Below the pieces are notes generated by a model. It searched no databases and had not been told where the DNA came from. It saw only the letters and a list, made by a program, of their open reading frames with translations. The position numbers and the translations under genes were made by a program. A stretch of DNA of 64,000 bases from an uncultured Phycisphaerales bacterium (lineage in GTDB: Bacteria > Planctomycetota > Phycisphaerae > Tepidisphaerales > Tepidisphaeraceae). Positions 44,101 to 63,936 of this stretch are shown in pieces (within the stretch, counting starts at the first letter, position 1; every line of letters starts with the position of its first letter). The DNA is taken from positions 320,305 to 384,304 of the forward strand of contig CAWJPJ010000005.1 of assembly GCA_963844715.1 (NCBI GenBank), in the 5' to 3' direction.

Positions 44101-44209
44101 CGAATTCGGGCACGTCACGGACTTTCCCAACCAGACCTATCTCCAGACCAACTACTGGGTAGACATCGACTTCACGCCAGGGGCGACGGCGACGGCGTTG
44201 GCGAAGTGA
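41195..44209 (+). CDS. Large exported protein with Ig-like domains and C-terminal DUF4082-like domain
   Basis: Signal peptide; Big-type repeats; VEVGVQF..IRFYK..GWQTVTF..NYWVD; central MTGDDH/LH deacetylase-like motif. Confidence 0.8.
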   Translation: MQNCIRGTLLVSILIGAAVLARLVVLSPAHIAGVSPQDESFGAAPDAHISVRFDNPMQLKSLTNQSVQLMRDGQVVPARLSYNAISKSVTLDATSPLDYDTVYTVRVAGGADGVKSKYFHRQLGGDFVFNFRTAISPLSGSGGPILLIENAANPFSTYVPEILRAEGLNEFATADIAAISPDLLSKYQLVVLGQTAVIASQADMLRQFVEAGGKLIAFRPDEKLDGLFGLHSEGEPVADGYLKIDHGNPIGVGLVNATIQYHGAADLYSLDGSTALAWLYSTSDTPMPNPAVTIRNVGSNGGAAAAFAFDLARSIVYIRQGNPVWSGRHRDDQELGRSNDLLLGPAHPRWVDMDKITIPQADEQQSLLGNLIEQMMLPKMPLPRFWYFPGGAKSVLVMTGDDHAVGGTVGRWHNYLTEEDCGGMPISATSYIYPSLTMRDKLLAPLVARGFEAALHVDIVKGPIFVDSSDMARDWRNYGELDAIYRHQLDIFDQQYPSLPSPVTNRTHGVVWTDYASQPEVEFSHGIRMDANYYYWPPTWVNDRPGMFTGSGLPMRFATAEGKMIDVYQESTVMTDESGQSYPYFVDELLNMATGPAEAYGAFAINAHTDEIASASSDAAVAAARKYDVPVMSAEKVLDFEDAKGNSTFDSIKWDAGARSLSFTIALATGAENLQAMVPLFDAAGQSLDSIFVNGQPVDFAKQLARGIYWARFAAQSGSVVATYSPDSGTANAISISEDGGTFTAKFARPIDPAAVSFKLLDADGNAVPAAISCDGGSATLKARDPLRAGFTYMAVAGALDSSGHAAGPAAVEFTTPLPSFDAKIYRFWGDGLPADCRESDDEHSVEVGVQFTADVSGSISSIRFYKFPGNPGPHVGRLWDRDGKLLASAQPASETESGWQTVTFAQPIQIDRGQSYVASYRCDHGHYAFTHGYFADHSANAGPIHAPASDSIGGANGVFAIAGRRVYNEFGHVTDFPNQTYLQTNYWVDIDFTPGATATALAK

Positions 44210-45772
44210 ATCCCCTTGTTATAAACTCCCCAGCCACCTGGAGAGGTGGCAGAGTGGTTGAATGCGCCGGTTTCGAAAACCGGTCTGCCCGAAAGGGTAG
44301 CGGGAGTTCGAATCTCCCCCTCTCCGTTACAAACCGCCACAAGTTGCGTTTCATCCGCAGCTTGTGATGCGGTTTTGTCTTCCTCATTCAGTCTACCGGA
44401 GTCTCCCGAAATCTCTCCCGGCGTACCGTTTAGCGCCAAGCAAAACGCCAAGACGCCCGATGTCGAATCGCCCGTATTTGCCGGTGCTTTCGACGCCTTC
44501 GGCGTTGGTTTGGGCAGATTCGGAAGCGCTCGCATCGCCGCCAACTCTTTATCGTGGTCGCTGTGCGAGTAGCGTTCCATCGTCAAGGCGAACGTGGAAT
44601 GCCGCGCTAACGTCTGTGCGATCTTCGGATGCACTCCGCCGGCGGCAAGGTTGCTGATGAAGGTGTGCCGCAAGGCGTGAAAATCAGCCTTCCGCTTGGC
44701 GTGATTGGTGTAGGCAAGGAAATCGGATTTCTCGCGGCGCTCTCGCTCCTCGTCGCTCTTCGCCTCTTTGATCCATTTTGCTCGCGCCGCGTCAAGATCG
44801 GCCCGGATCATTTTCGCCACATGTTGTCGCGGCGGAACGGCAAACGCGCAGCCGTCCGCTTGCTGATCCTTCAAATGCGCGACCATCATTTCGACAGTAT
44901 CCGGCCTGAGTGGAAGTATGCTTTCCCGGCGGTTCTTACAGTAGGCAGCGGCCACGGTGACGGTCGGCTCGTCGCCGCTGAGGCGAAACGACGCTGGTGA
45001 TAGACTGCGCAGCTCTCCGGCGCAACCCCGTTTCAACTGCCAACCGATAGAGCAAGGCCCGCTCCGTTCCCGGAAGATTGAACCGCACTGGCCCATCCGT
45101 CGCGGTTTCCAGCAGCAAGGTAAGCTCTTCCAACGACAGCGCCCGGCGGTCATGGCGGCGGTCGGTACGTACATTCAGACCTTGCAGGTGCAACAACGGG
45201 TTTTCGGTTGCCCGCCGGTCCTTGACCATCCACCGGCAGAATTGTTTGATCGCTTGCAAATAGAAATTGAACGTCTGAGCGCTGATTCCGTTCTTGGCCT
45301 GCCGCAGACAGTTGATGTGTGAAAGCACCTTGCTGGCGGAAATCGACGAATAGTGCCGGAAGCCGCACCCTTCAATCACCTTGCTTGCCCGGCTCTTGAC
45401 TAACTCTACATGCCGAGCGGTGCTGCCCTTGGCCTTGAGCGATTCGGCAAAATCATCCAGATGCTTGCTGAGTGGCTTCGTGACCGCCGCTCTTTCGCCG
45501 TCAAGCAACCCGATCTCCACCAGCCTTTCCCTCGTGGATTGTGGAATCTGCGAAAGCCATTGCTGCAATGATGGATCGGTCAAACCGCCAGTCGCCCGGT
45601 GATAGCTGATGAGCTTTTCCAAATTCTGGCCAAACGCCTCGCTGGCCTGCTTGCTGGTGAATGCCGGCAATCGACGGATGGTTTCGGCATGGTCGCGGAA
45701 TTCCACATACCACTTGCTCGATTCCTGGGTCACGCCTTGGCGGTCACGATACGTTGTCTTGAATACGCGCAT
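44152..45772 (-). CDS. Tyrosine recombinase/integrase (apparent frameshift near 45020); frame reads through attL and the tRNA
   Basis: ETGLR..EL, KNRR, FHALRHTF, LARHS, MERYSH catalytic motifs. Confidence 0.93.
44240..44326 (+). tRNA. tRNA-Ser(CGA), long variable arm, no encoded CCA
   Basis: Acceptor GGAGAGG/CCTCTCC, discriminator G, anticodon arm ccggt-TTCGAAA-accgg, T loop GTTCGAATC. Confidence 0.96.
44432..44454 (+). repeat. Candidate integrase arm-type site (left)
   Basis: agcgccaagcaaaacgccaagac, identical to 63796-63818. Confidence 0.7.
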
Positions 45773-45837
45773 GGGTCATCCTTTCCTACTGATTCAGACA
45801 TCTTAATGATGTGCGGGATAGATTCGATTCCTGGCTT

Positions 45838-46095
45838 TCAGTTATTTCCTTTGTACATCGCTTCCCACCGCTCGCGCGGTGGAGCGCCGGCGGCAAGCCA
45901 ACGCTCAATCGTTGCCCGATCCCACCGGACAGCCCGGCCCAATCGAACGGGCCGAGGTATTCGCCCCTGGCTATGCAACCGCCAGACGTGCGCGCGGCTG
46001 ATTCCCAATAGTTCGGCCATTTCGTCGGCGGAGATAGCCAGCCGAATTGTGGCGGCAGGCGTGGGCGTGGCAGATTGAGACAGCGGCATAACCAT
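45838..46095 (-). CDS. AlpA/excisionase-like HTH protein
   Basis: EMAELLGISRAHVWRL..GRIPRPVRLGRAVRW..IERWL; directly upstream of the integrase. Confidence 0.88.
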   Translation of the reverse strand: MVMPLSQSATPTPAATIRLAISADEMAELLGISRAHVWRLHSQGRIPRPVRLGRAVRWDRATIERWLAAGAPPRERWEAMYKGNN

Positions 46096-46108
46096 GTTAG
46101 GTGATTGT

Positions 46109-46136
46109 ATGGTATATTGGTTATAGTAAAAGTCAA
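46109..46136 (-). promoter_or_regulatory. Candidate promoter of the alpA-integrase unit
   Basis: TTGACT-N16-TACCAT on the minus strand in an AT-rich patch. Confidence 0.5.
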
Positions 46137-46213
46137 CGGTATCCTCCAAGTTAAACGGGATTCTTCGGCTTATGGCCGGTTCTCCGGCGGCTTCTTTCCG
46201 CCGCGCATTCTTC

Positions 46214-46364
46214 CCCGCTCCCGACCCATAGCGGAAGGGTTTTCCCGCCGGGCCGGGGGTTGTCAATGTGGATCGCCCAGCGGGAGGGGTCCCCGTGTAA
46301 TCACGGGGAGGGACATTGACAACCCCCGGCACGGCACACAATCGAGCTATGGGCCGGGAGCGGG
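46214..46364. other. Nested triple inverted repeat (structured RNA or DNA site)
   Basis: Stems 46214-32/46346-64 (18 of 19), 46252-69/46313-30 (18 of 18), 46290-97/46302-09 (8 of 8). Confidence 0.75.
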
Positions 46365-46457
46365 AATCCCCAAGTTGCCTGCGCAGCAGTCCTTATTCCA
46401 CTCTGTCTTTTCTGGAATGGTCAGTATAATCGGCATCAAACAGGAGAAGAATTCAAC

Positions 46458-46709
46458 ATGGCTAAAGCCAAAAGCGCCGCTCGCCCGCCCAAACTGGATG
46501 AAAAGCCCAAGACCCTCCAGCGAACCTACCGCTTTAACACAAAACTATTTGAGGCATTTGAGGACGACTGCGCCACTCATCTCGCCAACCCCAAGCGCGT
46601 CATTGAAGCGCTAATCCTGTATTGGCTGGACGCCGACGCCGACGAACGCGCGGCGATGGCCCACAAACATCGGGAACGGATTGGATCAGCGGCACGCGAT
46701 GAGGAATAG
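46458..46709 (+). CDS. Small probable ribbon-helix-helix DNA-binding protein
   Basis: AGGAGA RBS, TATAAT at 46425-30; QRTYRFNTKLFEAF...VIEALILYWL strand-helix-helix pattern. Confidence 0.65.
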   Translation: MAKAKSAARPPKLDEKPKTLQRTYRFNTKLFEAFEDDCATHLANPKRVIEALILYWLDADADERAAMAHKHRERIGSAARDEE

Positions 46710-46730
46710 CTTTACTGCAACGATTCATCT

Positions 46731-47015
46731 ATGGCGTTAATTATTCGTGGCAAATCGAAATGCCCAATCTGCGGCGAAGCGTTGCAGAAGGATCAACGTC
46801 TGGTCGCGACGAGCCACTTTATCTACGACCGCGTTGATCCGCTCTGGCAATTCTCTGACGCCGGCATGCACTACGAGTGTTTTCAGCATTGGCCGCACAG
46901 TGAAATATTCGTGTCCAAATACAATTCGACAATGGGTCAAAACGTTTGGGGTAATGGGACGCGCCATCACATGCGGCCCGATGGTGTCATCGAGAGCGTT
47001 CAGACAGGCGGATAG
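46731..47015 (+). CDS. Cassette ORF, hypothetical (CxxC ... HxxC metal-binding motif)
   Basis: 94 aa ORF whose stop abuts an attC-like site. Confidence 0.75.
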   Translation: MALIIRGKSKCPICGEALQKDQRLVATSHFIYDRVDPLWQFSDAGMHYECFQHWPHSEIFVSKYNSTMGQNVWGNGTRHHMRPDGVIESVQTGG

Positions 47016-47110
47016 ACAAATGCCGCAATGGACCGCGCCGACATTGAGCGTTCTGGTAAACTGAAACCCGGTCGGTGCCAGGTCGGCTAATGAACATTGG
47101 TCCGTCATGC
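47010..47110 (+). repeat. attC site (degenerate core ends)
   Basis: ggatagac...caatggaccgc...cggctaatgaac...gtcatgc; similar along its length to the 51777 site. Confidence 0.7.
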
Positions 47111-47132
47111 CCCAGCAACTTGGTCTATAGCC

Positions 47133-47623
47133 ATGACTGAAAGAAAGCCTATCGATTCCGAAGTCCAAGACTCCGCACTCGCAGGATTGGCAAATATGTT
47201 CTCGAATTGTCCAGATGATCCAACACCAGGCATCGATCTCATTAATCCGGCAGAGTTTAAGCTTACAGTTGAGAGCTTGGCTGCGATGGATTCGCATTTG
47301 GAGGTAATGCGAACCTTATCGTTCTCACCGAATCAATGGAACGTGTTCATTTTGCGCCTGGAGCCTATGTCGGCGAGGTGATTCGCATTTATACGAAGGC
47401 GCCTCGCGTTTGGCATTGGTTGTCATTCAAGCAGGCCGCTGAATGTTTGCCGCAAATTGCTTCATATGGAAAGAGCATCAGCACTGCGGCCGTTCTATGG
47501 AACGGCGAAGATGGATTTATCCTTCCTTTGGCCAAGGTGGACAAGTATCTTCGGAATGGCGCTGAGGATAGCGTGAAGTTTTATGCGCAGGTTATAATCG
47601 CGGGACCGCCGGCCGGCACATAA
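47133..47623 (+). CDS. Cassette ORF, hypothetical with GAYVGEVI motif (immunity-protein-like; apparent frameshift near 47358)
   Basis: Two overlapping ORFs between attC sites; stop codon lies in TAAC. Confidence 0.65.
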
Positions 47624-47720
47624 CCAACGACTGTGGACCTGCTAGCATTACGACGATATTCTGGTCCCGATTCTCGCCCGCTATCGCGCTTTGCAGACCG
47701 CAGGGCGTCATCCGTTATTC
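47618..47720 (+). repeat. attC site
   Basis: ACATAAC ... ctgtggacc ... gaccgcag ... GTTATTC. Confidence 0.75.
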
Positions 47721-47723
47721 TCT

Positions 47724-48047
47724 ATGGACAAGCGACTGACCTTTTCCGCCAATTCGATTACGGTGGGAGACCTCTCGTGGTCAACGCCGTACCCTGTCCA
47801 CGATGCCCGATGGGTCGGCCATCGGATCATCGCCATCTACGATTATCGCTCATCGCCCAACTCGGTTTTCAACAACCTTGAGGCTTTCGACGAGACCGGT
47901 CATAAGTTATGGACAGCGGAAAATCCCGGTGACGTTTATGTCGATTTTATGTCAGAAATACCGCTGGTCGTCTGGCAGTTCGCGTGTTTGCGATGCACCA
48001 TTGATGTGGAAAACGGGAGAGTGCTTGACGTTGTCTTCTCGAAATAA
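47724..48047 (+). CDS. Cassette ORF, hypothetical
   Basis: ATG just after R' core, TAA within AAATAAC. Confidence 0.7.
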   Translation: MDKRLTFSANSITVGDLSWSTPYPVHDARWVGHRIIAIYDYRSSPNSVFNNLEAFDETGHKLWTAENPGDVYVDFMSEIPLVVWQFACLRCTIDVENGRVLDVVFSK

Positions 48048-48095
48048 CCAGCCGCCCCCTGTGGCCGTCTTGGCTTGGTTGGTGAGTCTGCTCTC

Positions 48096-48685
48096 ATGGC
48101 TTGGATACCTTTTTATGCTGACGGCGTTGATATTGCGGAAATCCTGGCATATCTCAACGAAGACGACGCGACAGCCTTTATCGTCGCCGACGGTGCCAAG
48201 CGATGGAGGGCAGCCGCTCGCTTGCCTTCACTGCCTGATGGTCGCTACACGCTATGGATTTGCCTCGCCGGTCCGTTACCACTGCTAAGGCCGCATCCTC
48301 AGCCTAACTTGATCGTGGATGATCCTTGGTCGGGATGGGATGAATTGCGAACCGGTGCGAATCCAAACGAAGCGTATTTTGGCGCAAGTCCAGTAGTCGT
48401 GGCTTGGTTGCACGTTCGAACCCATGGCCGCGAATCGCCAGAATCAATCGGGCTTTCAAGCTTCGGGTGGGTGGGCAACAAATACAGGCGCGTCGGTAAA
48501 CCGGCACCGCCCGCCGCGCTTGATTGGTGGAAAAAGCTGGGCCGCAAAGTAAAAAAACATGCGGTTCGTGTTCCGCGCAAGGTACGCTAGATGGGCTCAA
48601 GCCGGAAATTTGGGCTCGCCCGTCGGCCCTTGCCGCAGTTCGCAAGTGGTATTCCACGAGATCGCAATCCATGACGGCCAATTAA
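48096..48685 (+). CDS. Cassette ORF, hypothetical (apparent frameshift near 48585)
   Basis: ORF to 48590 continues in another frame to TAA within AATTAAC. Confidence 0.65.
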
Positions 48686-48784
48686 CCAACCGCTGCTGTA
48701 TGGACCGCTCCACGTAGCGTCGGTATGCTCACCTATTTCGTGCGCCGCGTTGCGTTACGGGTTGCAAACCGTCATCCGTTATCT
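48680..48784 (+). repeat. attC site
   Basis: AATTAAC caaccgctgctgtatggaccg ... cgtcatcc GTTATCT. Confidence 0.72.
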
Positions 48785-48798
48785 TGCAGGAGCCGAAG

Positions 48799-49168
48799 GT
48801 GGTTTATTATCTTAACCTAGACAAACGCGACCTAGGTTTCGATGCTTCGTTTGAGAGCAGCCGGTTGCCGCGCAAGCGACGAGCTCCGGGCAATTACGAA
48901 GCGACTCGGGATCAAAAGCATCTTCGAGTTGTTCAGCTATTCCGCACAAAACTCTTTATGTCCGCCGGAACATAGGGAGAAAGTGGTCCCATGGTTCGAA
49001 CCAGCCGATGGAATCGCTTGGCTTGAGGCCATTATTGGCTTTATTCGTGCGGATGGCTCGGCAGTCAAAAACCCCGAAGAATTGCTTCAGGACCTTGCAT
49101 CCTGCCAAAACATTCTTCGTCAGGCGCAAACCGCTGGCGCAAAGTGGCACTTTGAAATGGACATATGA
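48799..49168 (+). CDS. Cassette ORF, hypothetical (apparent frameshift near 48865)
   Basis: AGGAG RBS + GTG; C-terminal WFEPADG...KWHFEMDI. Confidence 0.6.
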
Positions 49169-49207
49169 TGGCGACCGGTGTACCCGGCATATAGGTCTGT
49201 CGCTTAA

Positions 49208-49910
49208 ATGGTCGTGCCGCCGCCGGTCAGTCCTGCGCAGCGGCTGAAGGCTGCCTATACTTTTGTTGCCGGCTTGCATTGGGCTTGTTGGCATAGTGTA
49301 TCGTCTTTTATTCTGCGATCGCCAATGGGAATGTCTGCGTTCATCATTCGAGACGGGGACGACCAGCATCGCACGTTAATCAGCGACCGTGATATCGGCC
49401 TGCTCTCCGGTCCGCTTTTTACCGAGGGGCCGATTTTCAGCTTCACATACGGCTTCTATGAGAACTTCACGGTTGCGCACGGTATTCCACCGGGCTCGCA
49501 CGTCGTACGCCCCGCCCAAAAGCTCTATAACGCGGCTTCCGCCCTTTTGCGCAGTCGAACGTGATATAGAGCTTTTGACTTTCGATTATTCATTTGCCAT
49601 AGATGACGAGCGCGCTAAAGAAGGGCCTGAAGTCATCTTCCTTAGGGGGCGCAAGGGTCTCGTGTTGACGCACCCAAAGGGGTTTTGTCACATAGAAATC
49701 AGTGAAACCACTCCAAAGGGAAAAAGGGTACTTGAGATCGTCGATCTGCGTGTGCTAGGTGACTTTATTGCCGACGGACCGATGAGAATTTCAGCCCACC
49801 GCAAAGCTGCGACGCTGAATTGGGCCGAAGTGCTGCCGCCGCTTCTGGCGTTCCTTGGTCCAAGGATCAAAAAACGCTTGGTGGTTGAACATATCGACCG
49901 GGTACGATAG
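49208..49910 (+). CDS. Cassette ORF(s), hypothetical (probably one frameshifted gene)
   Basis: Overlapping ORFs 49208-49564 and 49389-49910. Confidence 0.5.
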
Positions 49911-49951
49911 CCAATTGCCGCTAACCGTCAGTCCTTTTAACCTGTCTCGCC

Positions 49952-50221
49952 ATGACGCTCATCGAAACGCATCCCGGCGAAAGCGATGCCGAACTCCGAG
50001 CGGTGACTGACGGCATCCTTAACATGCTGAATCCCGCAAAGCTCAACTGGTGGCACCCGTATGAGCTCCGCGGCGTCCATCACTACCAAGGTAAGTTGTT
50101 TCGGGAGTTCTGGTGCGTCGCTGGCAGCGTCCAGATATGGTTGTGGAAGCTGTCGTGCCAGCACCATCTGCGGCAAGTGGTTTGGCTTTCGGAGGGCGAG
50201 GCAGTGAATCCGGCGGGATAA
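49952..50221 (+). CDS. Cassette ORF, hypothetical
   Basis: 89 aa ORF with stop within GGATAAC. Confidence 0.55.
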   Translation: MTLIETHPGESDAELRAVTDGILNMLNPAKLNWWHPYELRGVHHYQGKLFREFWCVAGSVQIWLWKLSCQHHLRQVVWLSEGEAVNPAG

Positions 50222-50326
50222 CCAGCCTCTACTGTGGACGGTCCCGCATTGCTGCTGGTATGCTATCCCGCGCCGTGGCCCGCCTCGCGCGTCGCCTTGT
50301 CCGCAAAGAGCGGTCCTCTCTTACAT
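50216..50326 (+). repeat. attC site (R' degenerate)
   Basis: GGATAAC cagcctctactgtggacgg ... tccgcaaagag ... CTTACAT. Confidence 0.68.
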
Positions 50327-50573
50327 GGCCCAAGCATTCACCATTGATCGACAGGTCGAACGATACTTCATCGTCACCGACCTCCTTTGTGGTATTGCAA
50401 TCTGCGAAGGGTGCAAGTGCGAACCGGTCTACACCAGCGAGGCCCCTAAGATGTCCGACAAGCATCGATACGATCAGGCAGTTGCAATGCAGGCGACAGG
50501 CTGGGTAGTGCTCGCAGACAATATCAGCCTGTTATGTCCCAAGTGCGCCGCCCGCCGATCCGGCGCCATATAA
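50325..50573 (+). CDS. Cassette ORF, small zinc-binding protein
   Basis: CEGC ... GW ... CPKC; stop within ATATAAC. Confidence 0.7.
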   Translation: MAQAFTIDRQVERYFIVTDLLCGIAICEGCKCEPVYTSEAPKMSDKHRYDQAVAMQATGWVVLADNISLLCPKCAARRSGAI

Positions 50574-50677
50574 CCAGCCGCCGCTGTGGACCGGTCCGCA
50601 TCGCATCGTTAGATTGTCTTTCGTTCCGCGTCCCGTCGCGCGTCGCATTGCGGGCCATAGAGCGCCGTCCGATATGT
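50568..50677 (+). repeat. attC site (R' degenerate)
   Basis: ATATAAC cagccgccgctgtggaccgg ... cgggccatag ... GATATGT. Confidence 0.72.
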
Positions 50678-50695
50678 GGCACAGGGGATTGCACG

Positions 50696-51214
50696 ATGCG
50701 GACAGTCATCGCTCAGACTGACAAGGCACTAGACGAACGCCTCTATTATCTCGCGCTCATCGCCGCGCTGACAATTCCAGATATGGCAGCCGCGCTCGAA
50801 TCGCCAGATGGTCGCTCGTCCGCAAAGCGATACATCTCCTGGTACGAAAAATGGGTTCGTCCTCGCTTGCGTGAATCTCGGGATCGAGACAACCCTTTCA
50901 CTGGTGAGATGTGCTATGGTTTCCGTTGCGGGATGCTCCACCAAGGCAGAAGCACACATGCCTATCATTTGTACGAGCGCATCGTGTTTATCGAACCCGG
51001 TCATCCGAACTACAGTCTGCATTACTGCACGGTTAGCGGGAAGATTCTCGTGATACAGCTCGATGCGTTTGTTCGCGAAGTGTTGGATGGTTGTTCATTG
51101 TGGCTGAAGGAGGTGGAAGGCAAGGAACCGTTCAACACAAATTACTGCAGCTTTGCGCGTCGTCACCCCGACGGAATCGCCCCATACATCGTCGGGCCAC
51201 CGGTGGTCGGGTAA
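50696..51214 (+). CDS. Cassette ORF, HEPN-like protein
   Basis: YYLALIAALTIPD helix, YISWYEKW, R-X4-H motif (RCGMLH). Confidence 0.65.
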   Translation: MRTVIAQTDKALDERLYYLALIAALTIPDMAAALESPDGRSSAKRYISWYEKWVRPRLRESRDRDNPFTGEMCYGFRCGMLHQGRSTHAYHLYERIVFIEPGHPNYSLHYCTVSGKILVIQLDAFVREVLDGCSLWLKEVEGKEPFNTNYCSFARRHPDGIAPYIVGPPVVG

Positions 51215-51236
51215 TATGTTCGGCGGACGGCGTGAC

Positions 51237-51337
51237 ACATAACCCGCCAATGCAGTGGACCGAGGCGGCGGGTAAGCTTCTTGAATTCGAGAGCCGGCAC
51301 GGCACCAGTTCGGCCACTGATCGGCACTACGTTAATC
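51237..51337 (+). repeat. attC site (canonical)
   Basis: R'' ACATAAC, L'' AT(G)CAGTG / L' CACTGAT with extrahelical G, G(A)CCGA/TCGGC with second extrahelical base, R' GTTAATC. Confidence 0.9.
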
Positions 51338-51341
51338 CGTT

Positions 51342-51782
51342 TTGAATACCGACACAGTTCAATTCGTTCGTGGAAGTGCGGCTCGCGCGATGCGCGCGCT
51401 AGCAAGCATGGCCATCGCCCTCAGCGTGCTGCTCGGATTAGCACTGTGGCTCGTGGTCAAGGATACGACGGAGAAAAAGATTGTGGTCGAGGTTGCGTTT
51501 GTCATTGTCATAGCTGTTCTGATCACCGCTGCAAGCGGTGCTGCGGCTTGCACGGTCGCGAAGGTGCGAGATGGCAAGCTGGATTTCTTCTTCTGCGGCA
51601 TGCGGACGAAATCCTTCACACTAGACGGCGGCACGACGTTCGACCTACACAAGATCGGACGGCTGGAGGTGCTTCGCATTTGGCGTGAACGATCGAGCTA
51701 TGTCCCCAACGGGGCGCTAGACAAAGAAGCACTTATCGCGCTGCTTCGCACCAATGGTGTGGTGGAGCGGCAAGCGGACTAA
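51342..51782 (+). CDS. Cassette ORF, two-TM membrane protein
   Basis: Two hydrophobic helices; stop within GACTAAC. Confidence 0.7.
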   Translation: MNTDTVQFVRGSAARAMRALASMAIALSVLLGLALWLVVKDTTEKKIVVEVAFVIVIAVLITAASGAAACTVAKVRDGKLDFFFCGMRTKSFTLDGGTTFDLHKIGRLEVLRIWRERSSYVPNGALDKEALIALLRTNGVVERQAD

Positions 51783-51877
51783 CCACACGCTGCAATGGAC
51801 CGGCCCCGCGTCAACAGTATTGGTAACATGAAAGTCGGTCGGCGCGAGGCCAGCCGTTGAACGTTGATCCGTTACGT
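51777..51877 (+). repeat. attC site (terminal)
   Basis: GACTAAC cacacgctgcaatggaccggcc ... ggccagccgttgaa ... GTTACGT. Confidence 0.85.
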
Positions 51878-51909
51878 CGTCGATTGCCTCGGCGCTGGAC
51901 CATGGTAGG

Positions 51910-52347
51910 TCATCGGCATGGTTTGCGGTGTGGCCGCTTCCTGCTCGGCGCCGGGTCCATGACGGATCGGCGGTTGCGCCTATTGGTCGCCAACGCATCC
52001 AGGAACACTTCAAATCGCTGCGATGCGCTCGCCCATGCCTTTTCCTTGTTCTCCGGCTTCACTGGCGGCATGTGACGGAAGAATGTGCACACAAACATCG
52101 CCAGCATTTCCCGGACCAGCTCATGCTGAGATTGCTGGTCCTCGTGCATCTTGACCATCCGATTGAAGCAGCGATCGATGGCCTTGAGCGAGGTTTGTTC
52201 CTGCTTCTCCCGATATTCGGGCATTAATGATTGTCGCGCCGCGTCCACCACAACCGAGCCAAGGGACGATCTGGTTAGCGATGCCTGCACTTTGACCGCT
52301 TTGAGCAAGGCGTCATCCAGCCGGATTGTCAGAGGGTATTTGTCCAT
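51910..52347 (-). CDS. CopG/RHH-family protein of the type found in Tn4371-like conjugation modules
   Basis: LTIRLDDALL...VVVDAARQSL RHH; EMLAMFV..F...PP...RFEVFLDALA C-terminus. Confidence 0.75.
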   Translation of the reverse strand: MDKYPLTIRLDDALLKAVKVQASLTRSSLGSVVVDAARQSLMPEYREKQEQTSLKAIDRCFNRMVKMHEDQQSQHELVREMLAMFVCTFFRHMPPVKPENKEKAWASASQRFEVFLDALATNRRNRRSVMDPAPSRKRPHRKPCR

Positions 52348-55117: not shown

Positions 55118-55179
55118 TGATCTCCGCTTCTGCTTTGAAGCTCGCTGAATATCACGGGGTCGCCCCAAAAGAGCCCGCC

Positions 55180-56054
55180 TCACCCGATATGAGCCACAAA
55201 GATTCCAACTCGCTTCTTTGCTATTTCGTCGGGGTACTGATCAACGGTCTTTGAGCCGCATCGGTTTAGCGGTCCATATACGATGATCTTCAGCTTGTCG
55301 CCGGCAGCAATGCGCCATTTACCGGATTTTGTTCCCAAAGGACCGCTGAAACCTTTAAGTACAATCTCCTCGTCGGTCCAACTTTGCAGATAAACGCCAA
55401 TGGCGCATCGATTGATTTCGCCGACGCGACCTGCTACCCAGCGGTGTTGGCCCTCGCCAAGGTTCACAATGGCAAGAGAGGGCCTGAATTCTCCGGCAAG
55501 CGTATCAACGCCACGCGATGCCGGTATTGTCTCCGGTTTACCGCCAAAGCCGTGTCCAGAGATTACGATGCATTGATTCGGCAGGTGATTACCAGAGATC
55601 GGCGTGACGCTTGTGATCTGCGTGCCCCGATCTTCCAACTCTTTGAATAATGCCTCTACTTGTTGGGTGCTGCACCGACAATTCAGCGCGATGTCCGCGA
55701 TAGTCTTGATGCCGCGCACGTACTGGGCATAAAGGGCGTATTGATTGTAAATACTGAGTCGCGTTGGCACGGGATGCTGGTCGTTAGTTCGTTGTGGTGG
55801 GTCGGCCGGGCCGTCTGTCAGCTCCGGGTTATAGAAAGCATCCCCTTCGACATGTTGAGCGTCTTTTCAACGATTTCCAAAGACCCGTATTCGAATCTTC
55901 GGCCCGTCTCAAACTGCCGATCGCTCAACATATCGGTAATAATTTTCCGATCCTCGAATCCACATGCCTTTGCCAATTCCTCCTGAGTAAGATGTGAACC
56001 TTGCCACGCTCGGCGAAGAGCCGGAACGTTTGCCCGGTATAGAGGCCTACCCAT
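55180..56054 (-). CDS. XRE-type HTH, probably fused (frameshift near 55828) to an IPT/TIG-like beta domain
   Basis: LTQEELAKACG HTH; ITSVTP...IVISGHGFG...SWTDEEI; second frame open upstream of 55770. Confidence 0.55.
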
Positions 56055-56230
56055 AGCTCACCTCATGCGCATTCCGCTCGCGCTCTATTCTCATTCCATA
56101 TCTTTCGCCGTAGACGAAGCCGATCGATGATAGCCGCTGAGATAAACAATTGTCACGCTGCTCCGACTGTTCGGTTTGCCAGCGTTAAGGGCCCAGCCGG
56201 AAGTAGCGAATTAGCAAAAGGAGTTTCATC

Positions 56231-56443
56231 ATGAGCGAGTTTCGTCGCAAGTTGAAGGAATCGGGCCATTTTATCGAGGGTGAACGGCACAATGGGACCC
56301 ACGTTCATTACGATTCGTCTGGTGGATCAGACCGGCCGGTGAACGTTCGCAATGAACAGACGGGCGAAGGCCTCAACCTCCGCACCGCTACGCTAAAGGA
56401 GGCCGATGACTTTGCGAAGCGGTGCAACGGTTCGAATGATTGA
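56231..56443 (+). CDS. Small hypothetical protein
   Basis: AAGGAG RBS, 70 aa ORF. Confidence 0.65.
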   Translation: MSEFRRKLKESGHFIEGERHNGTHVHYDSSGGSDRPVNVRNEQTGEGLNLRTATLKEADDFAKRCNGSND

Positions 56444-56497
56444 AATGATTCGACCACGAATGAACATTTACAAATCAGCACCGGATTTTCGCGACGG

Positions 56498-56534
56498 TTG
56501 AACGATCCGCCGAGTTCCTCGGCGGATCGTTCAA
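56498..56534. terminator. Strong hairpin, possible terminator
   Basis: Perfect 17-bp stem ttgaacgatccgccgag/ttc/ctcggcggatcgttcaa; no U-tract on the plus strand. Confidence 0.5.
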
Positions 56535-56588
56535 AATCGTCAAATGTTCTGTAACCTCCGTAGTTGACAGTGGCTCGGGGATTAATCG

Positions 56589-57850
56589 TGACCTTTCCCC
56601 CTAAACCCGATCCATCCTGAATGATATATTTTGGGATGGATCAAGGAGAATAAAGGTCATGAGTCACAAGCGTCATACGACGGAACAAATCGTCAATAAA
56701 TTGCGTCAGGCGGACGTGGAACTGGCCAAGGGCCAGACCATCGCATCGGCGTGCAAGCTGATCGGGATCACCGATCAAACCTACTTCCGCTGGCGAAGGG
56801 AATATGGCGGATTGAAGGTCGATCAAGCGAAGCGATTCAAGGAACTGGAACAGGAGAACGCGCGTCTGAAGCGTCTGCTGGCGGACGCGGAGTTGGACAA
56901 GGCGATCCTGCGCGAGGCCGCCCGCCCAAACTTCTAAGCCCGGCGCGTCGGCGTGAAGCGGTGGATCGCGTCCAGGAAGAACTGGACGTCAGCCAGCGTC
57001 GAGCATGCCGGGTGCTGGGCCAGGCGCGAGCGGTGCAACGACATACTCCAGAAGTGAGAGAGGACGAGGCGCCGTTGACAGGCCGGATGGTGGAGTTGGC
57101 GGCGGTGTACGGGAGATACGGCACACCGCGGATCACAGCGATGCTCCAACAGGAAGGGTGGATCGTGAACCACAAACGGGTGGAACGAATCTGGCGGGAG
57201 TCGGGCCTGAAAGTGCCGGCAAAACAGCCGAAAAGGGGAAGACTCTGGCTCAACGACGGGAGCTGCGTGCGTTTGCGTCCGCAGCGAAAGGATCACGTGT
57301 GGGCATACGACTTCGTGAGCGGCCGGACGCACGATGGCGTGCCGTTCAAGATGCTGACGCTGGTGGACGAATACACGCGCGAATGCCTGGCGATTGATGT
57401 GGCGCGGAAGCTGACGAGTGACGATGTGCTGGAACGTCTGGCGTGGCTGATGGCGACACGCGGCGTGCCGGAGCACATCCGCAGCGACAATGGCCCGGAG
57501 TTCACGGCGACCATCGTAAGGGAGTGGCTGGCGAAAGTAGGCGTAAAAACCTTGTTCATCGAACCTGGCAGTCCGTGGGAAAATGGATACGTTGAAAGCT
57601 TCAATGGAAAACTTCGGGATGAATTGCTGGAACGGGAGATCTTCTACAGCCTGACGGAAGCGAAGGTACTGATCGAGATGTGGCGTAAACACTACAACAC
57701 GGTCCGTCCGCATAGCAGCCTGGGGTATCGTCCGCCGGCACCGGAGACGATTGCTGCTGGCCCGCCCTCCGCTGCGCTCCGGTCGGGCCAGCAGCAAAAT
57801 TCCGTGGAATCACTAACACAGGTTTTGGTATGATTCGTGGGGGAAGGTCA
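56589..57850 (+). mobile_element. Complete IS3-family element (IS407-group-like), 1262 bp
   Basis: TGACCTTTCCCC...GGGGGAAGGTCA ends, 4-bp ATCG duplication, orfA/orfB. Confidence 0.95.
56659..57833 (+). CDS. IS3 transposase OrfA (56659-56937) / OrfB, programmed -1 frameshift
   Basis: HTH OrfA; C CCA AAC slippery heptamer before the OrfA stop; WAYDF, RSDNGPEF, PWENGYVESFN DDE motifs. Confidence 0.93.
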
Positions 57851-57858
57851 ATCGCTAA

Positions 57859-58128
57859 ATGCCTGATCGAATTCGCTGGCCGCTAAATTCCGTAGAATGG
57901 ATTGAGGTCGTGCGAGGGCTAGGTTTATCAGCTCAGCAAGTGAAAATTGTTGAACTGGTGGTTTCGGCAAAGAAGGACAAACAAATCGCCGCTATGCTTG
58001 GGATAAAGCGTTCAACGGTTCGGACCCATCTGGGGCGGATCTTCGCCCACTTGGAAGTCGCAGACCGCATGGAACTCGCGCTGCGGGTCTTTACCGCTGT
58101 TTACGAGCGTTGCAAACGAAAGCCCTGA
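57859..58128 (+). CDS. Stand-alone LuxR-type HTH regulator
   Basis: LSAQQVKIVELV...KQIAAMLGIKRSTVRTHLGRIFAHL. Confidence 0.82.
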   Translation: MPDRIRWPLNSVEWIEVVRGLGLSAQQVKIVELVVSAKKDKQIAAMLGIKRSTVRTHLGRIFAHLEVADRMELALRVFTAVYERCKRKP

Positions 58129-58225
58129 GCGAGGTGTCATCCAAAGAGATGAACGAAATTACGTTGAGTCCATAAGCCAGAGAAATACAATTGCTGCGCC
58201 AGTTTGGGCGCTCCTGGGTGCCGGG

Positions 58226-58464
58226 TCATCTTGAATTGATGAGGCGTTTGACGGCTTCGAGAGGCTCCATGTTGCAGCCAGCGCACCATTCAAGGAACTC
58301 GGCGATGTCGATCCGTCGGCTGGCTGCTTCAGACTTGAAAACCCAGCTTTGAGACTTGCCGATGCGTGCGGCGAGTTCCCGTTGTGTTAAGCCTGCATTT
58401 AGGCGTACTTGCGCAAGAACGGAGGAACCTTGCGATAGATCAAAGCAAATTGACTTTTGGCCAC
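58226..58464 (-). CDS. XRE-family HTH regulator (apparent frameshift near 58408)
   Basis: R..AGLTQRELAARIGKSQSWVFKSE...RRIDIAEF. Confidence 0.8.
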
Positions 58465-58663
58465 ACCGATGGTTTATCCGGCCAAAATAGGCTTGAATCC
58501 GAATGGGATTCAGATAAAATCCTCTTATCCCAGCCGTCGGTACTGAAGCCGCTGTTTTTTGATCGAACGGCATCAATCGGTAGCAATTAAGGTTTGGGGA
58601 CAGGGCGGGGTCGTTTCAGCTCATATCCCTTCGGCGTGTCCGCTCCAATCATCAGGAGGCATC

Positions 58664-61600
58664 ATGCAACGTCGCAAATCTCGTCGGGCAACACACGCGA
58701 TTTCGCGTGCAGGCTATTCCATCGAACAACTGGAGCAACGCCTGCTGCTCACTGCTTCAATCAGCAATCCCACCGCCGACGGATTCCAAACGAGCTTGAC
58801 TTTGCCCTCTGGCGCCCAAACCTACATCTTCGGCCTTGTCACAGGCGGCGGAAATACAACCAGCACATTTGCTAATGGTTCTACAGAAACGGTTACAAAC
58901 GCGGCTCGGGAATGTGGGGGTTGGTCTGGCCGTCACCACGCAGCCAAGCAACAGCTTCACTACGGCAACGAGCTTCTACTCGATCGCCGGCGTCGGCGTG
59001 ACGGGCTACACCAATATGCAGGCGATGTACAACACTTATGTTGATCCAAACACCGGCGATTTGAGCGACACGGGAACTTTTGGAACTTCCGTTTCTTTCA
59101 CGTTGACGCAAACCGCGCTGGTCGTCGCGATGGGTGGCGGCAGCAGCCAGCAATCCATCAGCTTTAGCGGCGTTACCGGTTTATCCACCGATGCCGACGT
59201 TTCCGGCACGGGCGACGGCCTAGCCAACACGATCGGAATCGCACACGCGGTTCTTGGCCCCGGCACGTACACGATCAATCTGACGACGAACATCACATCC
59301 GATTTGCAGGAGCAGCAGGCGGTCGCCGATCTTTTGGGTGTGTATATCTTCACTGGCTCAGCGGCCGCCACCGGTCCTGTTGCCGCGGTGACCACTCCAA
59401 CGGGAACACAAGAGGGCTATGTCACGATCAATTACACGTTGACCGATCCCAATTCCGATCCAGCCAGCATTGTCGCCCAATATAGTCCCAACGGCGGCAC
59501 GACTTGGGAAACGGCAGTTGAGGGAAGCGGCGATAGCGGTACGACCGATCTAGCCACAAGCCCCTCAGGTGTCCCCCACACATTCGTCTGGGCAAGCGGT
59601 ACACCGGGAACCGACCTTGCAAATGTCTTGAATAATAACGTGGAATTCCGAATCATTCCGAGCCGCCGCTGATGGCACAGGTGCGGCGGCCTCCACCGGC
59701 CCATTCACTGTAGATGACATCGTCCCCAGCCTGACGGTGAACACGCCAACCAGTCCCCAGAGTGGCAACATAACGATCACTTACACCGTACTCGACGCAA
59801 ACTCCGATCCCGTTAATGTGGAGCCGTATTACAGCACCAACGATGGCTCCACGTGGAACCTCGCGACTTCCGCCGGTGGCGACGGACTCACCGACCTCAG
59901 TTCCAGCCCCTCAGGTACAGAACACACATTCATCTGGGCGAGCAATACCGATCTACCGAATACCTCTACTAGCGTGCTTTTCTCTTTCAGCGTTGTCGAA
60001 TCGCCAGGCAATCCGGGCAGCTACGGCGTGGGCGGACAGAGCGGTGCATTCACAGTTGATAATACGGCCCCACCCTCTCTGCAAATTGCGGTCATTCCAC
60101 CCTCGGGCGAGCCGACCGGTGATCTACCGCTTACTGGGCAGGTCGAGAGTGCATTGGGTGGGACATCTGGCCAACCAAACCAAGCAACGATTGCAGTGAT
60201 TAATAACCTTGATCTCTGGCTTCCCATTTCTGTCACTACAGGTACTCAGAACGTGTCCGCATCAAGTAACACTGTTAGCGGATTCCTATACAACAATTTA
60301 GGGATAATTTATCCGAATGGCACTGTCTCTTTCACCATGGACTTCACGACCCCGGGCAATGGGGTCTTAGCACAACAAGGATCTGCGACCGCGGACACAC
60401 CGTATGAATCAGCCTTTCTGCTTAATGCGTTAGAAGTGATCCTCTCGTCAGCCGATTTGCCCGCCCCATACAAAATGCTCACTTTGGTCGGGGAGCCATC
60501 CATAGGATCGTTGGTGACGCTAGTGAATACTCTGGAGTCGAGCCAAGCCCCCATGGGCCTCCAAAAGGCGATTGCCTTATTCGAATCGCCCCCCACGAAC
60601 CCTATTAGTATGGGAATAGATGAGGTTGAGGCTGGAGATGATCTTTTGCAAGTGTTCACCGATTCAGCGCAAAGGACGCAACTTGCAACAGAACTTGTAC
60701 AAGCGCTCGGTCTTTCGTCAGTAACCACGGTCGCCGCGAATATAGAAAGTTATGCCTTGGATAACGGATTACCATCGCTTTTGTTAATGTTAACGAATGC
60801 GGTGGATGATTTGGGTAATGAACTGGAGACATTATATCAGAATCTCACTGGGAACCCCACCAGCGGCGATGTGTTATTCACGGCAGTCCCTGAAAATATT
60901 GCTGCACCGTCCGCGATCATCAATAGTACAAACAGCGCGACCATAAGCTGGGGAGCTTTCACTCCCTCTGATGGGGAAAGCGTCGTGAGCTATACGGTAT
61001 CGTACGATGCCAATGGATTTTTGTGGGCCGATTCCAAACAGACCACAGGGACGTCACTCCCGCTGACCGGCTTGTCATCACTTGTGAACTACGATGCCTG
61101 GGTCGTAGCCAATGGCAACGACGGAGGCGAGTGGGCATTGGGTTGGTGCGGCTTTAACACGGGGGGTACGACGCCGCTTTCGCAGCTAGTGGTTTCTGTA
61201 CCCTCTCAGACCATTACGGCAGGAACGCCATTCACGTTGACTGTGGCAATACAAAATCAATACGGGAACACTCTGACCACTGATGACTCTGATGTAACAA
61301 TTGCTCTTAACCCTGATCCCACGCTATATGGCACGACAACAGTGCAGGCGATAAATGGCATCGCGACTTTCAGTGACCTCTATATTGATTTGAGCGGAAT
61401 TTACAGTTTCGTAGCAACGGATGCAACCGACGGCATCAGCACGACGACGCCATCCGCCCTCACCACGGTCACACCTGCAACTCCAGATCAATTGGTCTTC
61501 GTTCAACAGCCTACGAATACGATGGCCGGTAATGAAATAAATCCGGTGGTGACGGTGGATATTGAGGACCAATACGGCAACGTCCTGACCTCCGACGATT

Positions 61601-62430
61601 CGGCCCTGAGCTTGGCCATCGCTAGCGGGCCGACGGGCGGTCTTTTCACGCATTCGTCCGTCACGACAGTGGATGCCGTCGACGGTGTGGCCACGTTTGA
61701 GAATCTGACGTTGGACACAGCGGGGACCTACATTCTTGCCGCATCGGATGCGACCGATGGTTTTAATAATATCAACTCAAGCAGTTTCAACATCACGTCC
61801 ACCGCCGCATCGAAGTTAGTATTTATCCAGCAGCCGACCAATACAATAGCCGGCAATGTCATCAGCCCAGCCCTAACTGTGGCCGTCGAAGATCAATACG
61901 GCAACATCGTCACGACGAATGATTCCTATGTGACCCTGGCCCTGGGGAACAATTCCCCCTGCGGACAACGCTTCAATGGTGTCTTGACAGTCCAGGTCAA
62001 TGATGGCGTGGCGACTTTCAGCAACCTCTCGTTGACGAAGGCTGGAACCTACATACTCAAAGCGACCGACGGCAAGCTGGCTTCGGCCACATCAAGCAGC
62101 TTCCAGATCTTTCCCGCTGCTGCGGTACGCATGGTTTTCATCCAGGCGCCGCTGATCGACGTTACTGGAAAAAAATTCGGCGTCGAGGTCGAGTTGCTCG
62201 ACAAATACGGCAACATGGCGACCAACGATGCCTCCAGCGTCACGCTCTCGCTCGGGCCTGGGCTATATCCCAAGAGCGCCCTGCTGAGTGGGACGCTCAC
62301 GGCAAACGTGGTGAATGGGATTGCCGCATTCCACAATCTGTCGATCAACGACATCGGCTTTTACACGCTGCTGGCGACCGACAGCAATGGCAGTTTGTTT
62401 GCAGCGGAGGTTCCAATTCTTGTTGTTTGA
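58664..62430 (+). CDS. Large secreted/surface protein with LEPR-XLL-like N-terminus and Ig/FN3-like repeats (frameshifts near 58895 and 59665)
   Basis: AGGAGG RBS; IEQLEQRLLLT; two YSxxxGxTW repeats, FN3-like unit, four EDQYGN...G.ATF..L repeats. Confidence 0.82.
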
Positions 62431-62566
62431 CGGTCTATTTTTCGACTTCGGCCAGGAATCTTGTTTCGTAAAATGACTTTGATGGATGCCCAAAGCGATG
62501 TGATGATGCGATTTACAAATTTGATCGCATGGCTTTCCGATTCTGGAAAACCTGACAAGCGGGTGC

Positions 62567-63136
62567 TTACAGCAACGCAACGAATTCCCTCAGTCTTGCA
62601 GTGGTTTGGGCCAATTGTTGCTGGGTAAGGCAATCCAAGAATTCTTCCACCGTTTTTGGCGGATTTTTCAGGCTTTGGCGCTGCCGACGTGCCGCGGCGC
62701 AGACAGCCGGCGCATCCAGGTCGAGCAAGTGCGTCACAAAGACATCGGGATGTTGTGGTTCGATGCCAAGTGGATCGAGTATTTTGTCCGGAAAATCGTC
62801 GAGATTGAACGTCACGATCACATCGGCGCCGGCGCGGATAGCGGCAGCCAATACGTGGCGGTCATCGGGATCAGGCAATTGCAATCCGTCGATAAAACCT
62901 TCGTAGCCAGTAACGAGGCAATCGAGGACATGGGCATTCATTAGGTCGCGCGTTCGCTCAAGCTGCTGGCGTTTTAAATCGGGCCGATTGGCCAGAACGC
63001 TGCGCATCCATTCATCATGAATCTGGTCCGTCCACCGCGCGCGGAAAAGATCGGTCATCGCCTGATGCATCAGCAAGTCGCGCAGCGGGGCGGGGTACAG
63101 CACACAGGCGTCGTAAAGGGCCGTGAAACTTGCCAT
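62567..63136 (-). CDS. PIN-domain toxin (VapC-like)
   Basis: LYDACVLYP, LPDPDDRHVLAAA, IVTFNLDDFP motifs. Confidence 0.9.
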   Translation of the reverse strand: MASFTALYDACVLYPAPLRDLLMHQAMTDLFRARWTDQIHDEWMRSVLANRPDLKRQQLERTRDLMNAHVLDCLVTGYEGFIDGLQLPDPDDRHVLAAAIRAGADVIVTFNLDDFPDKILDPLGIEPQHPDVFVTHLLDLDAPAVCAAARRQRQSLKNPPKTVEEFLDCLTQQQLAQTTARLREFVALL

Positions 63137-63151
63137 TGAAGCGGCCCTTGC

Positions 63152-63601
63152 TCAATAGCCCATTTTGAGTTCCTGGGCTTGCGCGGCCAGTTCTTCCAGG
63201 GCCTTAAGCCGATGCTGATCGACTTTTTGGCGGTAAGCCAGCAGGTCGCTGAACAGCACACGGCGATGCGTGCCAACCTTGCGTGATGGGATTTTGCCCT
63301 CATCCAACAGCTTGACCAGGAACGGCCTGGACACGCCAAGCGCGTCCGCCGCCTGTTGCGTTGTCAATTCCGCATGAATGGGAACGAGTGTCACGGCATT
63401 GCCCGCGGCCATTTCCGACAGCAATCGAACCAACAGACGCACGGCCGATGCAGGAAGCGTGATCGCTTCGCCGTGTTTACCGGCGATTTGGATTTTCAGA
63501 TCGCGCTGGGCATAGCGCGCCAGCCGCCGGCTCGATTCGCTCGCCAATTGGGCTTCGGCCTCCGTGGGCGCGACAGGTTCACGCAGCGTTGCTGTGGACA
63601 T
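63152..63601 (-). CDS. Excisionase-family HTH antitoxin paired with the PIN gene
   Basis: ELTTQQAADALGVSRPFLVKLLDEGKIP..KVGTHRRV. Confidence 0.9.
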   Translation of the reverse strand: MSTATLREPVAPTEAEAQLASESSRRLARYAQRDLKIQIAGKHGEAITLPASAVRLLVRLLSEMAAGNAVTLVPIHAELTTQQAADALGVSRPFLVKLLDEGKIPSRKVGTHRRVLFSDLLAYRQKVDQHRLKALEELAAQAQELKMGY

Positions 63602-63675
63602 TGCTTGGGCTCCGGTTGGTCCTCAATTACTATATCGGACAAACGAAACAAAAGCAATAGTCGAAATAATCGAAA

Positions 63676-63874
63676 TTAATGGGTTTCCTCCTCCTTGGAT
63701 GCGGCAATCATGGCTACGATGCCGGCACGGATCGCGGGCGCGAGCCGTTGCCAGGCGGCGACTACCACAGCCAGGTGGGGATCGATTTGCTTGGCAGCGC
63801 CAAGCAAAACGCCAAGACAGTCGGTAGGATTTGCGTAACTGCCTGATTGGTCGGTGCTTGAGGCGTCTTGCTTC
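63676..63874 (-). other. Open frame abutting attR, encoding DPHLAVVVAAWQRLAPAIRAGIVAMI helical module
   Basis: In frame with the att core translation NGEGEIRTPATLSGRPVFETG; no ATG with an RBS ahead of the module inside the element. Confidence 0.6.
63796..63818 (+). repeat. Candidate integrase arm-type site (right)
   Basis: Identical to 44432-44454. Confidence 0.7.
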
Positions 63875-63936
63875 CCGGTTTCGAAAACCGGTCTGCCCGA
63901 AAGGGTAGCGGGAGTTCGAATCTCCCCCTCTCCGTT
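63875..63936 (+). repeat. attR: duplicated 3' portion of tRNA-Ser
   Basis: 62-bp identity with 44267-44328, starting at the anticodon stem. Confidence 0.95.

Follow-up and report, generated by a model that had tools for sequence, protein, structure and literature searches.

Our analysis deals with a 64,000-nucleotide (nt) stretch of DNA, termed the window in the following, from an uncultured Phycisphaerales bacterium of the Tepidisphaeraceae (Planctomycetota; assembly GCA_963844715.1, contig CAWJPJ010000005.1), and within it with a 19.6-kb segment that is bounded by a 62-nt exact direct repeat (44267-44328 and 63875-63936) and carries an integrase gene at one end. At the attachment (att) site on the integrase side, attL, the repeat copy makes up the 3′ two-thirds of a tRNA-Ser(CGA) gene; at the opposite copy (attR, 63875-63936) no tRNA was called by ARAGORN. 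With a complete tRNA gene on one side and a displaced fragment on the other, the integrase-bearing segment shows the Islander signature of a tRNA-gene genomic island; it is an integrative and probably mobilisable element residing in tRNA-Ser(CGA). The features at its two ends are as follows (ORF, open reading frame; aa, amino acids; attP, the att site of the excised element; P numbers denote homologous proteins).

44152-44266, minus strand: host-encoded end of the ORF in the integrated state, running antisense through the 5′ part of the tRNA and the end of the adjacent host gene to a stop at 44152
44239-44327, plus strand: tRNA-Ser(CGA), into which the element is integrated, with the gene complete on the attL side (ARAGORN)
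44267-44328: attL copy of the core, 62 bp, from the tRNA anticodon stem to the tRNA 3′ end (exact direct repeat)
44329-44568, minus strand: integrase tail from the catalytic Tyr to the core, open in the integrase frame only by its stop counts, conserved in P0151-P0154
44432-44453: integrase-side copy of an exact 22-nt repeat (two CGCCAAG with a 12-nt period), a candidate arm-type site 103 nt from the core
44569-45021, minus strand: integrase catalytic domain, frame B, with the catalytic Tyr codon (44569-44571) at its end (PF00589, E 4.4e-9)
45019-45020: frameshift point, where the window is short of 2 nt (GC) against relatives; GC is inserted behind 45019 in 5 of 5 covering contigs from 4 metagenome runs
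45020-45772, minus strand: integrase N-terminal part with an ATG start at 45772, arm-binding-like and core-binding domains, frame A (96% identity to P0151 residues 1-251; weak SAM-like Pfam matches)
63676-63874, minus strand: linker, C-terminal module and stop, which would follow the core in the attP form
63679-63783, minus strand: conserved module DPHLAVVVAAWQRLAPAIRAGIVAMIAASKEEETH, two of three predicted helices (conservation in 115 sequences; predicted local distance difference test, pLDDT, 92-97)
63796-63817: module-side copy of the exact 22-nt repeat, 57 nt from the core, in a frame that differs from the integrase-side copy
63875-63936: attR copy of the core, 62 bp, displaced 3′ tRNA fragment (exact direct repeat)
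63937-64000: the last 64 nt of the contig beyond attR, which may belong to the integrase tail of a second element and not to host DNA

The minus-strand frame 44152-45174 carries the FHALRH, RHS and RYSH boxes, and this C-terminal part of the integrase matches PF00589 with 36.8 bits (curated cut-off 27.1, E 4.4e-9). The frame has no stop ahead of the attL core, which it reads as NGEGEIRTPATLSGRPVFETG, and goes on through the antisense tRNA to the stop at 44152. From the Tyr codon at 44569-44571 to the core at 44328 it stays open, and the att core lies inside the integrase ORF, downstream of the catalytic Tyr. At attR the core is read identically by a frame that extends over a further 65 residues, KQDASS...IDPHLAVVVAAWQRLAPAIRAGIVAMIAASKEEETH, to a stop at 63676. 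A first-pass annotation of the letters had already placed the att core inside the integrase frame with these two stops, and this reading was confirmed in the sequence. It had also cautioned that insertions or deletions between 44330 and 44600 might disturb the frame; the frame is upheld by the closest homologues, P0151 (90% identical), P0152-P0154, P0166 and P0200, in which the course from the catalytic Tyr into the core is identical, and by one related metagenome contig that spans 44304-44664 without a gap. Over the 240 nt before the core and the core itself, the window has 0 stops in the integrase frame vs 2 and 5 in the two others.

It is likely that the integrase gene spans its own att site, and that a conserved tail of the enzyme is exchanged for host-encoded residues on integration and regained on excision. 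The ORF of the excised element would run from the catalytic domain through an unstructured tail of about 80 residues with one arm-like repeat into about 21 core-encoded residues, and from there through a linker of about 35 residues with a second arm-like repeat into the helical module and its stop. Integration would cut this ORF inside the core; the enzyme would retain its catalytic domain and end in 37 host-encoded residues, the DNA of the module would be left without a start at the other end of the element, and excision would rebuild the full integrase gene.

The frame relation between the two ends was followed in other genomes, where module matches and integrase matches (42 of 61 genomes, G004 included) on one contig were taken as pairs. 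In every usable pair the geometry is the same, with module and integrase on one strand and the module 2-53 kb upstream. There were 22 such pairs, 21 from 14 relatives and the window's own; G004:C12 (unpublished) and two loci at which the integrase end runs off the contig (G000:C3 and G015:C85) were left out, as was G011:C211, which has another geometry and is not a pair. The core, defined as a direct repeat overlapping a tRNA at the integrase end, could be identified in 20 of the 22 (15 genomes), while G019:C24 (no core) and G019:C9 (17-nt partial core, in phase) were dropped from the count. For G034b and G018 the repeat overlapping the tRNA was chosen over the top-scoring one, and for G039 the module ORF nearest the core was chosen. 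The 20 pairs use 15 anticodons of tRNAs for Ser, Gly, Leu, Arg, Thr, Lys, Cys and Ala. In 18 of them the two sides are in the same phase and both frames are open across the core, as compared to a chance expectation of one in three, and 19 of 20 have no stop between Tyr and core. Summed over the 20 pairs, the 240 nt before the core together with the core (5,852 nt) contain 0, 71 and 98 stops in the coding, +1 and +2 frame, respectively, and the 4,693 nt from the first position of the core to the end of the module contain 0, 55 and 64.

With the C-terminal part of the integrase as query we obtained 510 proteins at E ≤1e-10 and examined 120 listed ones, in 114 of which the catalytic Tyr could be located. 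The tail behind the Tyr comprises at least 90 aa in 93 of the 114 and holds tRNA-derived 5-mers in 93 of the 114, vs 9 of 114 for a stretch of equal length ahead of the Tyr, which served as control (the test asked for at least two 5-mers from six-frame translations of the genome's 74 tRNAs). Among these tails the tRNA is read both in antisense and in sense. Tails of less than 70 aa were found in 20 of the located homologues, including a group about 411 aa in length with a conserved ATGT motif at the end. By these sequences, integrase ORFs that read into their own att site are the rule in the family. It could be argued that such open frames arise by chance in G+C-rich DNA or in an indel-prone assembly and that nothing is translated beyond the normal integrase end, since the genome has about 59% G+C with many long spurious ORFs and frameshifts are present in two integrases of the assembly (the window's and one on contig C1). 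However, the stop counts by frame, the long tails of homologues from many assemblies, and the conservation of the module at the protein level in 4,065 clusters make this explanation hardly credible.

Forms in which integrase and module are continuous do exist. Six public proteins hold the integrase end, the core peptide and the module in one frame (P0030, P0246, P0249, P0271, P0272 and P0276), P0272 being a member of another integrase subfamily. P0175 (556 aa) and P0276 (581 aa) are 95% identical (494/518) up to ...NGLANR, past which P0175 enters the other tRNA half and P0276 enters linker and module; P0232 and P0246 are 87% identical (223/255) up to ...PVFKTG and then diverge likewise. In both comparisons the divergence sits exactly at the crossover, with the C-terminal segment replaced and the catalytic domain intact. 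Furthermore, a 9,200-nt IMG/VR contig of the direct terminal repeats class (99-nt repeat) carries an integrase ORF that exits at the contig end and resumes in the same frame at the contig start, where it passes a tRNA-His-like 5′ half into ...DPDLVAIVEAWGSLPAPIRAGILAMVEAAK and then stops; the end pieces examined contain this tRNA half and no complete tRNA. Judged from its ends, the contig is a circle, an excised form carrying the continuous ORF. In metagenomes, 80 loci out of 369 relatives were kept, 48 of them with at least 900 nt upstream, and an integrase lies directly upstream of the module in 4 of these 48; two of them, L112 and L119, show a continuous ORF, and the metagenome loci may share their origin with the six public proteins. 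The first-pass annotation had expected the attP form to gain a helical module and the integrated form to carry a host tail, with the catalytic domain intact in both states, and had called for a frame count over reconstructed attP sites. That count (18 of 20 vs one in three) and the continuous ORFs bear out the exchange of tails, and the two protein comparisons, with their divergence at the crossover, agree with an intact catalytic domain.

Four of the 20 pairs, like the circular contig, have the 5′ half of the tRNA on the element, in sense direction (loci L036/L035 in G034, L038/L039 in G019:C30, L045 in G019:C7, L046 in G056, and L063/L064 on the IMG/VR contig). At such sites the rebuilt tRNA gene receives its 5′ half, and presumably its promoter too, from the element. 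In the Islander paper, 159 of 3,919 islands are listed as carrying a 5′ tRNA fragment (PMC4383910).

The module itself is widespread. A profile built from the genome's three copies matches 4,065 cluster representatives (50% identity) at E ≤0.001 among 1.84 billion. Of 61 related genomes, 40 contain the module (E ≤0.01, a tally that includes the unpublished G004), as do 30 of a 301-genome sample of the phylum (E ≤1e-5). Across 115 sequences the positions L, W and A are invariant and P, L, G, I and M nearly so, with the consensus DPxLAxVVxAWPxLPEAxRAGIxAMV; the frame from core to module is also kept in P0004 and P0007. The predicted model of the window's module has helices at residues 16-30, 32-43 and 46-63, with pLDDT 92-97 over residues 31-60. 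The module has no name in Pfam, NCBIfam or PHROGs. Its best match against PDB sequences has E 0.59, the best Foldseek match against the PDB has E 5.2, and the ESM Atlas returned "hypothetical protein" clusters only (scores 0.86-0.88). A word-indexed search for longer module-bearing proteins found none, which reflects the limit of that index. The ratio of nonsynonymous to synonymous polymorphism (pN/pS) in one close pair, G051/G060, is 0.79 for the linker and 0.58 for the module, with too few sites to be given weight. An ORF of at least 534 aa that ends in the module shows weak matches to archaeo-eukaryotic primase (AEP) and DnaB-N domains and contains no tRNA peptide, and some small ORFs contain two to four tandem module copies (primase-like and tandem cases: L016:1498-3099 on the minus strand, L049 in G039:C30, P0029, P0033, P0091 and P0112).

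The best 150 module proteins are annotated as short ORFs (42-229 aa) that terminate in the module, which raises the question whether the module is a separate small gene by attR, a regulator or accessory protein with its own start, the frame agreement being a by-product. In favour of this, GTG or TTG occurs at least once in 15 of 20 linkers, and the module is also found away from integrases. At metagenome locus L128 (about 2300-2640) a shorter integrase stops just before the core and the frame reopens at once through the core into the module, with a Val codon behind the stop that is a putative GTG start; L128 could represent an independent start or read-through. A conserved start is lacking, however: an in-frame ATG between core and module is present in 3 of 20 loci and absent in 17, and 5 of 20 lack ATG, GTG and TTG altogether. 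The called starts of the 150 proteins are scattered, and 81 of them contain tRNA-derived 5-mers, upstream of the module in those that were read. The 18 of 20 pairs in the integrase frame and the continuous ORFs, one of them on a circular contig, also speak against a gene of its own, and we regard this explanation as improbable.

Several observations weigh against an exchange of integrase ends as the general design. Among the pairs, G050:C61 is out of frame and G016:C20, in the same phase, has an integrase stop before the core; G034a (G034 pair p1), which is counted among the 18, has a module shortened by a later frameshift, and at G019:C9 the integrase is followed by a different, out-of-frame module. 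As the genomes behind the pairs are related, the pairs are not entirely independent of each other, and a formal P value would overstate the frame result. Among the metagenome loci, L107 is frameshifted between core and module and L128 has its one in-frame stop between integrase and core. The GTG or TTG codons of the linkers leave room for independent initiation, and the module, which also ends a primase-like ORF and occurs in tandem copies, is not exclusive to integrases. For the window's own element, no attP or attB junction was seen in the sequences aligned to 44100-64000 (Logan contigs of 4 metagenome runs, shares ≤0.17); the contig joints listed over this range are short-sided and come from relatives, with none linking 44329 to 63874 and none skipping the element. 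The last point of this kind is the 2-nt deficit in the integrase gene itself. By tblastn, P0151 residues 1-251 align to 45020-45772 and residues 252-512 to 44239-45021 in another frame; the break at 45020/45021 falls inside the ETGLR/AGELR box (identity to P0151 90-96%). FHALRH and RYSH are present in the window's copy, and the deficit splits the gene right at this box. The contigs covering 45019 belong to relatives of the window's organism that are at least 85% alike, and to judge from them the deficit would be either an assembly error or a real lesion that makes the gene a pseudogene.

Because of this 2-nt defect the switch may be idle in the window's copy. The design might then be real for the family and the window's element a dead remnant, with a genuine 2-nt deletion in the integrase gene. 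The deficit recurs in 0 of 5 related contigs, an IS3-type transposase gene sits in the cargo (56751-57833), and the attP or attB joint was missing from the Logan contigs of the 4 runs. On the other hand, the integrase is otherwise 90-96% identical to P0151 and has no other defect, the two 62-bp cores and the two 22-nt repeats are identical, which suggests recent activity, and the frameshifts of the C1 integrase in the same assembly look like errors. We consider a dead remnant a serious possibility, although not the one we would expect. The integrase on contig C1 (G000:C1:45947-47383, L004), the third of this family in the genome, is split over several frames by either assembly indels or decay; judged by P0165 and P0189, its reading frame through its core would be that of the module at C6:1247385-1247576.

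The make-up of the continuous enzyme can be seen from P0271 (PF00589 score 66.8 bits), for which a predicted model (mean pLDDT 81.5) shows an N-terminal three-stranded sheet followed by helical and catalytic domains with pLDDT >90. Residues 433-455 and 467-543 have pLDDT <50, and three module helices follow at 543-586 with block-mean pLDDT of 86-96. The core-encoded residues, about 514-527, fall in the stretch of low pLDDT. Since these residues lie in a disordered stretch, any tRNA, frame and orientation would be tolerable, and the frame need only stay open.

Regarding its function, the module would seem to be dispensable for excision, because circles exist and the integrated copy can encode the module-less enzyme only; the module should therefore act in the excised state. 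It might there license attP x attB recombination via complex assembly or a partner, or set the lifetime of the enzyme, and its loss would then help to lock the element in; we put this forward as a tentative proposal that is well conceivable, if not yet probable. More speculative, and in our view rather unlikely as it stands, is the idea that the module is a portable docking domain and that its encoding across attP ties integrase assembly or partner binding to the topology of the element. Tandem modules and a primase-like ORF ending in the module fit a docking role. If docking were true, control of directionality would be written into gene structure, alongside an excisionase or replacing it, and this would be common to thousands of elements with at least 15 tRNA targets in either orientation; the module of the primase-like protein would point to a shared partner of the excised element's machinery.

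A second repeat flanks the core. The window holds two exact copies of the 22-nt repeat vs 0 in 100 shuffles, and they are read in different frames, as LAFCLAL and LGVLLGA. Exact repeats of 22-25 nt occur in like positions in six other pairs (G034b, G019:C30, G028, G040, G058:C60 and G018), and the circular IMG/VR contig has a 20-nt flanking repeat of its own; across the examined loci such repeated motifs flank the core at about 57-125 nt. Within the family the doubled motif reads LAxCLAx, LGVLLGV, LSPDLSL or WASGWAS, and these varied readings fit a signal at the DNA level. We infer that the flanking repeats are candidate arm-type sites of the integrase. Lambda-type heterobivalent integrases are similar in the N-terminal three-stranded sheet, which in the model precedes the core-binding and catalytic domains, and in repeated DNA motifs flanking the core at this distance. 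They differ in that the arm-like repeats, here candidate sites, lie inside coding sequence with different frames on the two sides.

The choice of an integrase between integration and excision is usually credited to separate directionality factors; here the element's own state would rewrite the end of the enzyme. Related principles are known. In the integration-dependent immunity of mycobacteriophages attP lies inside the repressor gene, and integration removes the degradation tag of the repressor. There, too, recombination at attP alters the C-terminus of an element-encoded protein and thereby how the protein behaves, but it is a repressor that loses a degradation tag, whereas here the integrase would lose a predicted three-helix module. 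In SSV1, integration splits the integrase gene in a way that the provirus encodes no intact enzyme. A split integrase of the SSV1 type was ruled out for the window, as the PF00589 match and the Tyr are all on one side of the core. The target of the Myxococcus phage Mx8 is tRNA-Asp. This phage appears to be the closest known case and would work alike without belonging to the same family. A review places the Mx8 attP within the integrase gene, which on integration acquires a new 3′ end while the enzyme is not inactivated (PMC6070905); the Islander paper describes the integrases of Mx8 and SSV as extending across attP and the SSV1-type gene, with attP inside it, as partitioned by integration (PMC4383910). 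Mx8 shares with the window's element an attP in the integrase coding sequence downstream of the catalytic region, a tRNA target and a new 3′ end of the gene, while the family described here differs from the SSV1 type in keeping the whole catalytic domain and exchanging only a tethered end module. Some 110 residues from its end, the tail of Mx8 Int also contains a tRNA-like peptide (TGLEPVLLGS), as in the present family. However, Mx8 Int and P0271 show no detectable relation in BLASTP (best E 1.8), the module profile scores -0.9 bits on Mx8 Int with filters off, which is no match, and a tblastn search with P0271 against 50,697 phage records gave 19 weak matches to the catalytic domain only, none of them Mx8. 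Furthermore, Mx8 is a single phage, whereas the feature is seen here in a family whose portable end module is conserved and which uses many tRNA targets, in both tRNA orientations.

No description of this integrase family was found in the full-text literature searched, subscription journals being outside its coverage. What was a curiosity of one phage in the 1990s (Mx8) would thus become a widespread design, with a module in 4,065 clusters, 40 of 61 related genomes and 30 of 301 genomes of the phylum, and one that supplies a natural pair of isoforms. For genome annotation this would mean that integrase ORFs entering antisense tRNA are real and not spurious extensions, and that small ORFs without a start by displaced tRNA fragments are detached integrase ends, which could be used as precise markers of island borders.

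Contig C5, on which the window lies, and the window itself both end 64 nt beyond attR. A 40-nt core probe was found three times in the genome, at attL and attR of C5 and at C3:48608 beside a second module, and contig C3 breaks off within a second integrase (loci G000:C3:48608-48841 and C3:102050-103457). This fits two tandem elements at one tRNA-Ser(CGA), each with its own frame through the shared core (NGEGEIRT vs RRGGDSNS). At the DNA level, the ends of contigs C3 and C5 and the integrase tail share matches of 7-13 nt only; the comparison of these ends is without power, and we infer a tandem array with corresponding reserve. Another tRNA-Ser(CGA) of quite different sequence is located at G000:C6:954037-954125, adjoining a tRNA-Ser(GCT).

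Between its two ends the element carries the following genes:

45838-46341, minus strand: AlpA/HTH_17 protein just upstream of the integrase gene, a candidate excisionase (PF12728 E 2.9e-10; PF05930 E 5.1e-8; phrog_66 excisionase E 4e-13)
51910-52347, minus strand: weakly supported ribbon-helix-helix protein (RHH_1 19.7 bits, below the cut-off of 20.5)
52347-53987, minus strand: relaxase-like protein (DUF3363 86.8 bits, E 2e-24; MobA/VirD2 23.6 bits, below the cut-off of 24.6)
56751-57833, plus strand: IS3-type transposase inside the cargo (rve, rve_3, HTH_21)
59737-62430, plus strand: 897-aa ORF, no match above cut-off
62567-63136, minus strand: PIN-domain protein
63152-63601, minus strand: HTH_17 protein, paired with the PIN protein

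The relaxase-like gene at 52347-53987 suggests, by its domain match, that the element is mobilisable. The PIN and HTH_17 genes (62567-63601, minus strand) lie just inside the module end of the element and resemble a toxin-antitoxin pair. Near the start of the 897-aa ORF there is an imperfect 59-nt direct repeat (71% identity; 59544-59602 and 59890-59948, 346 nt apart).

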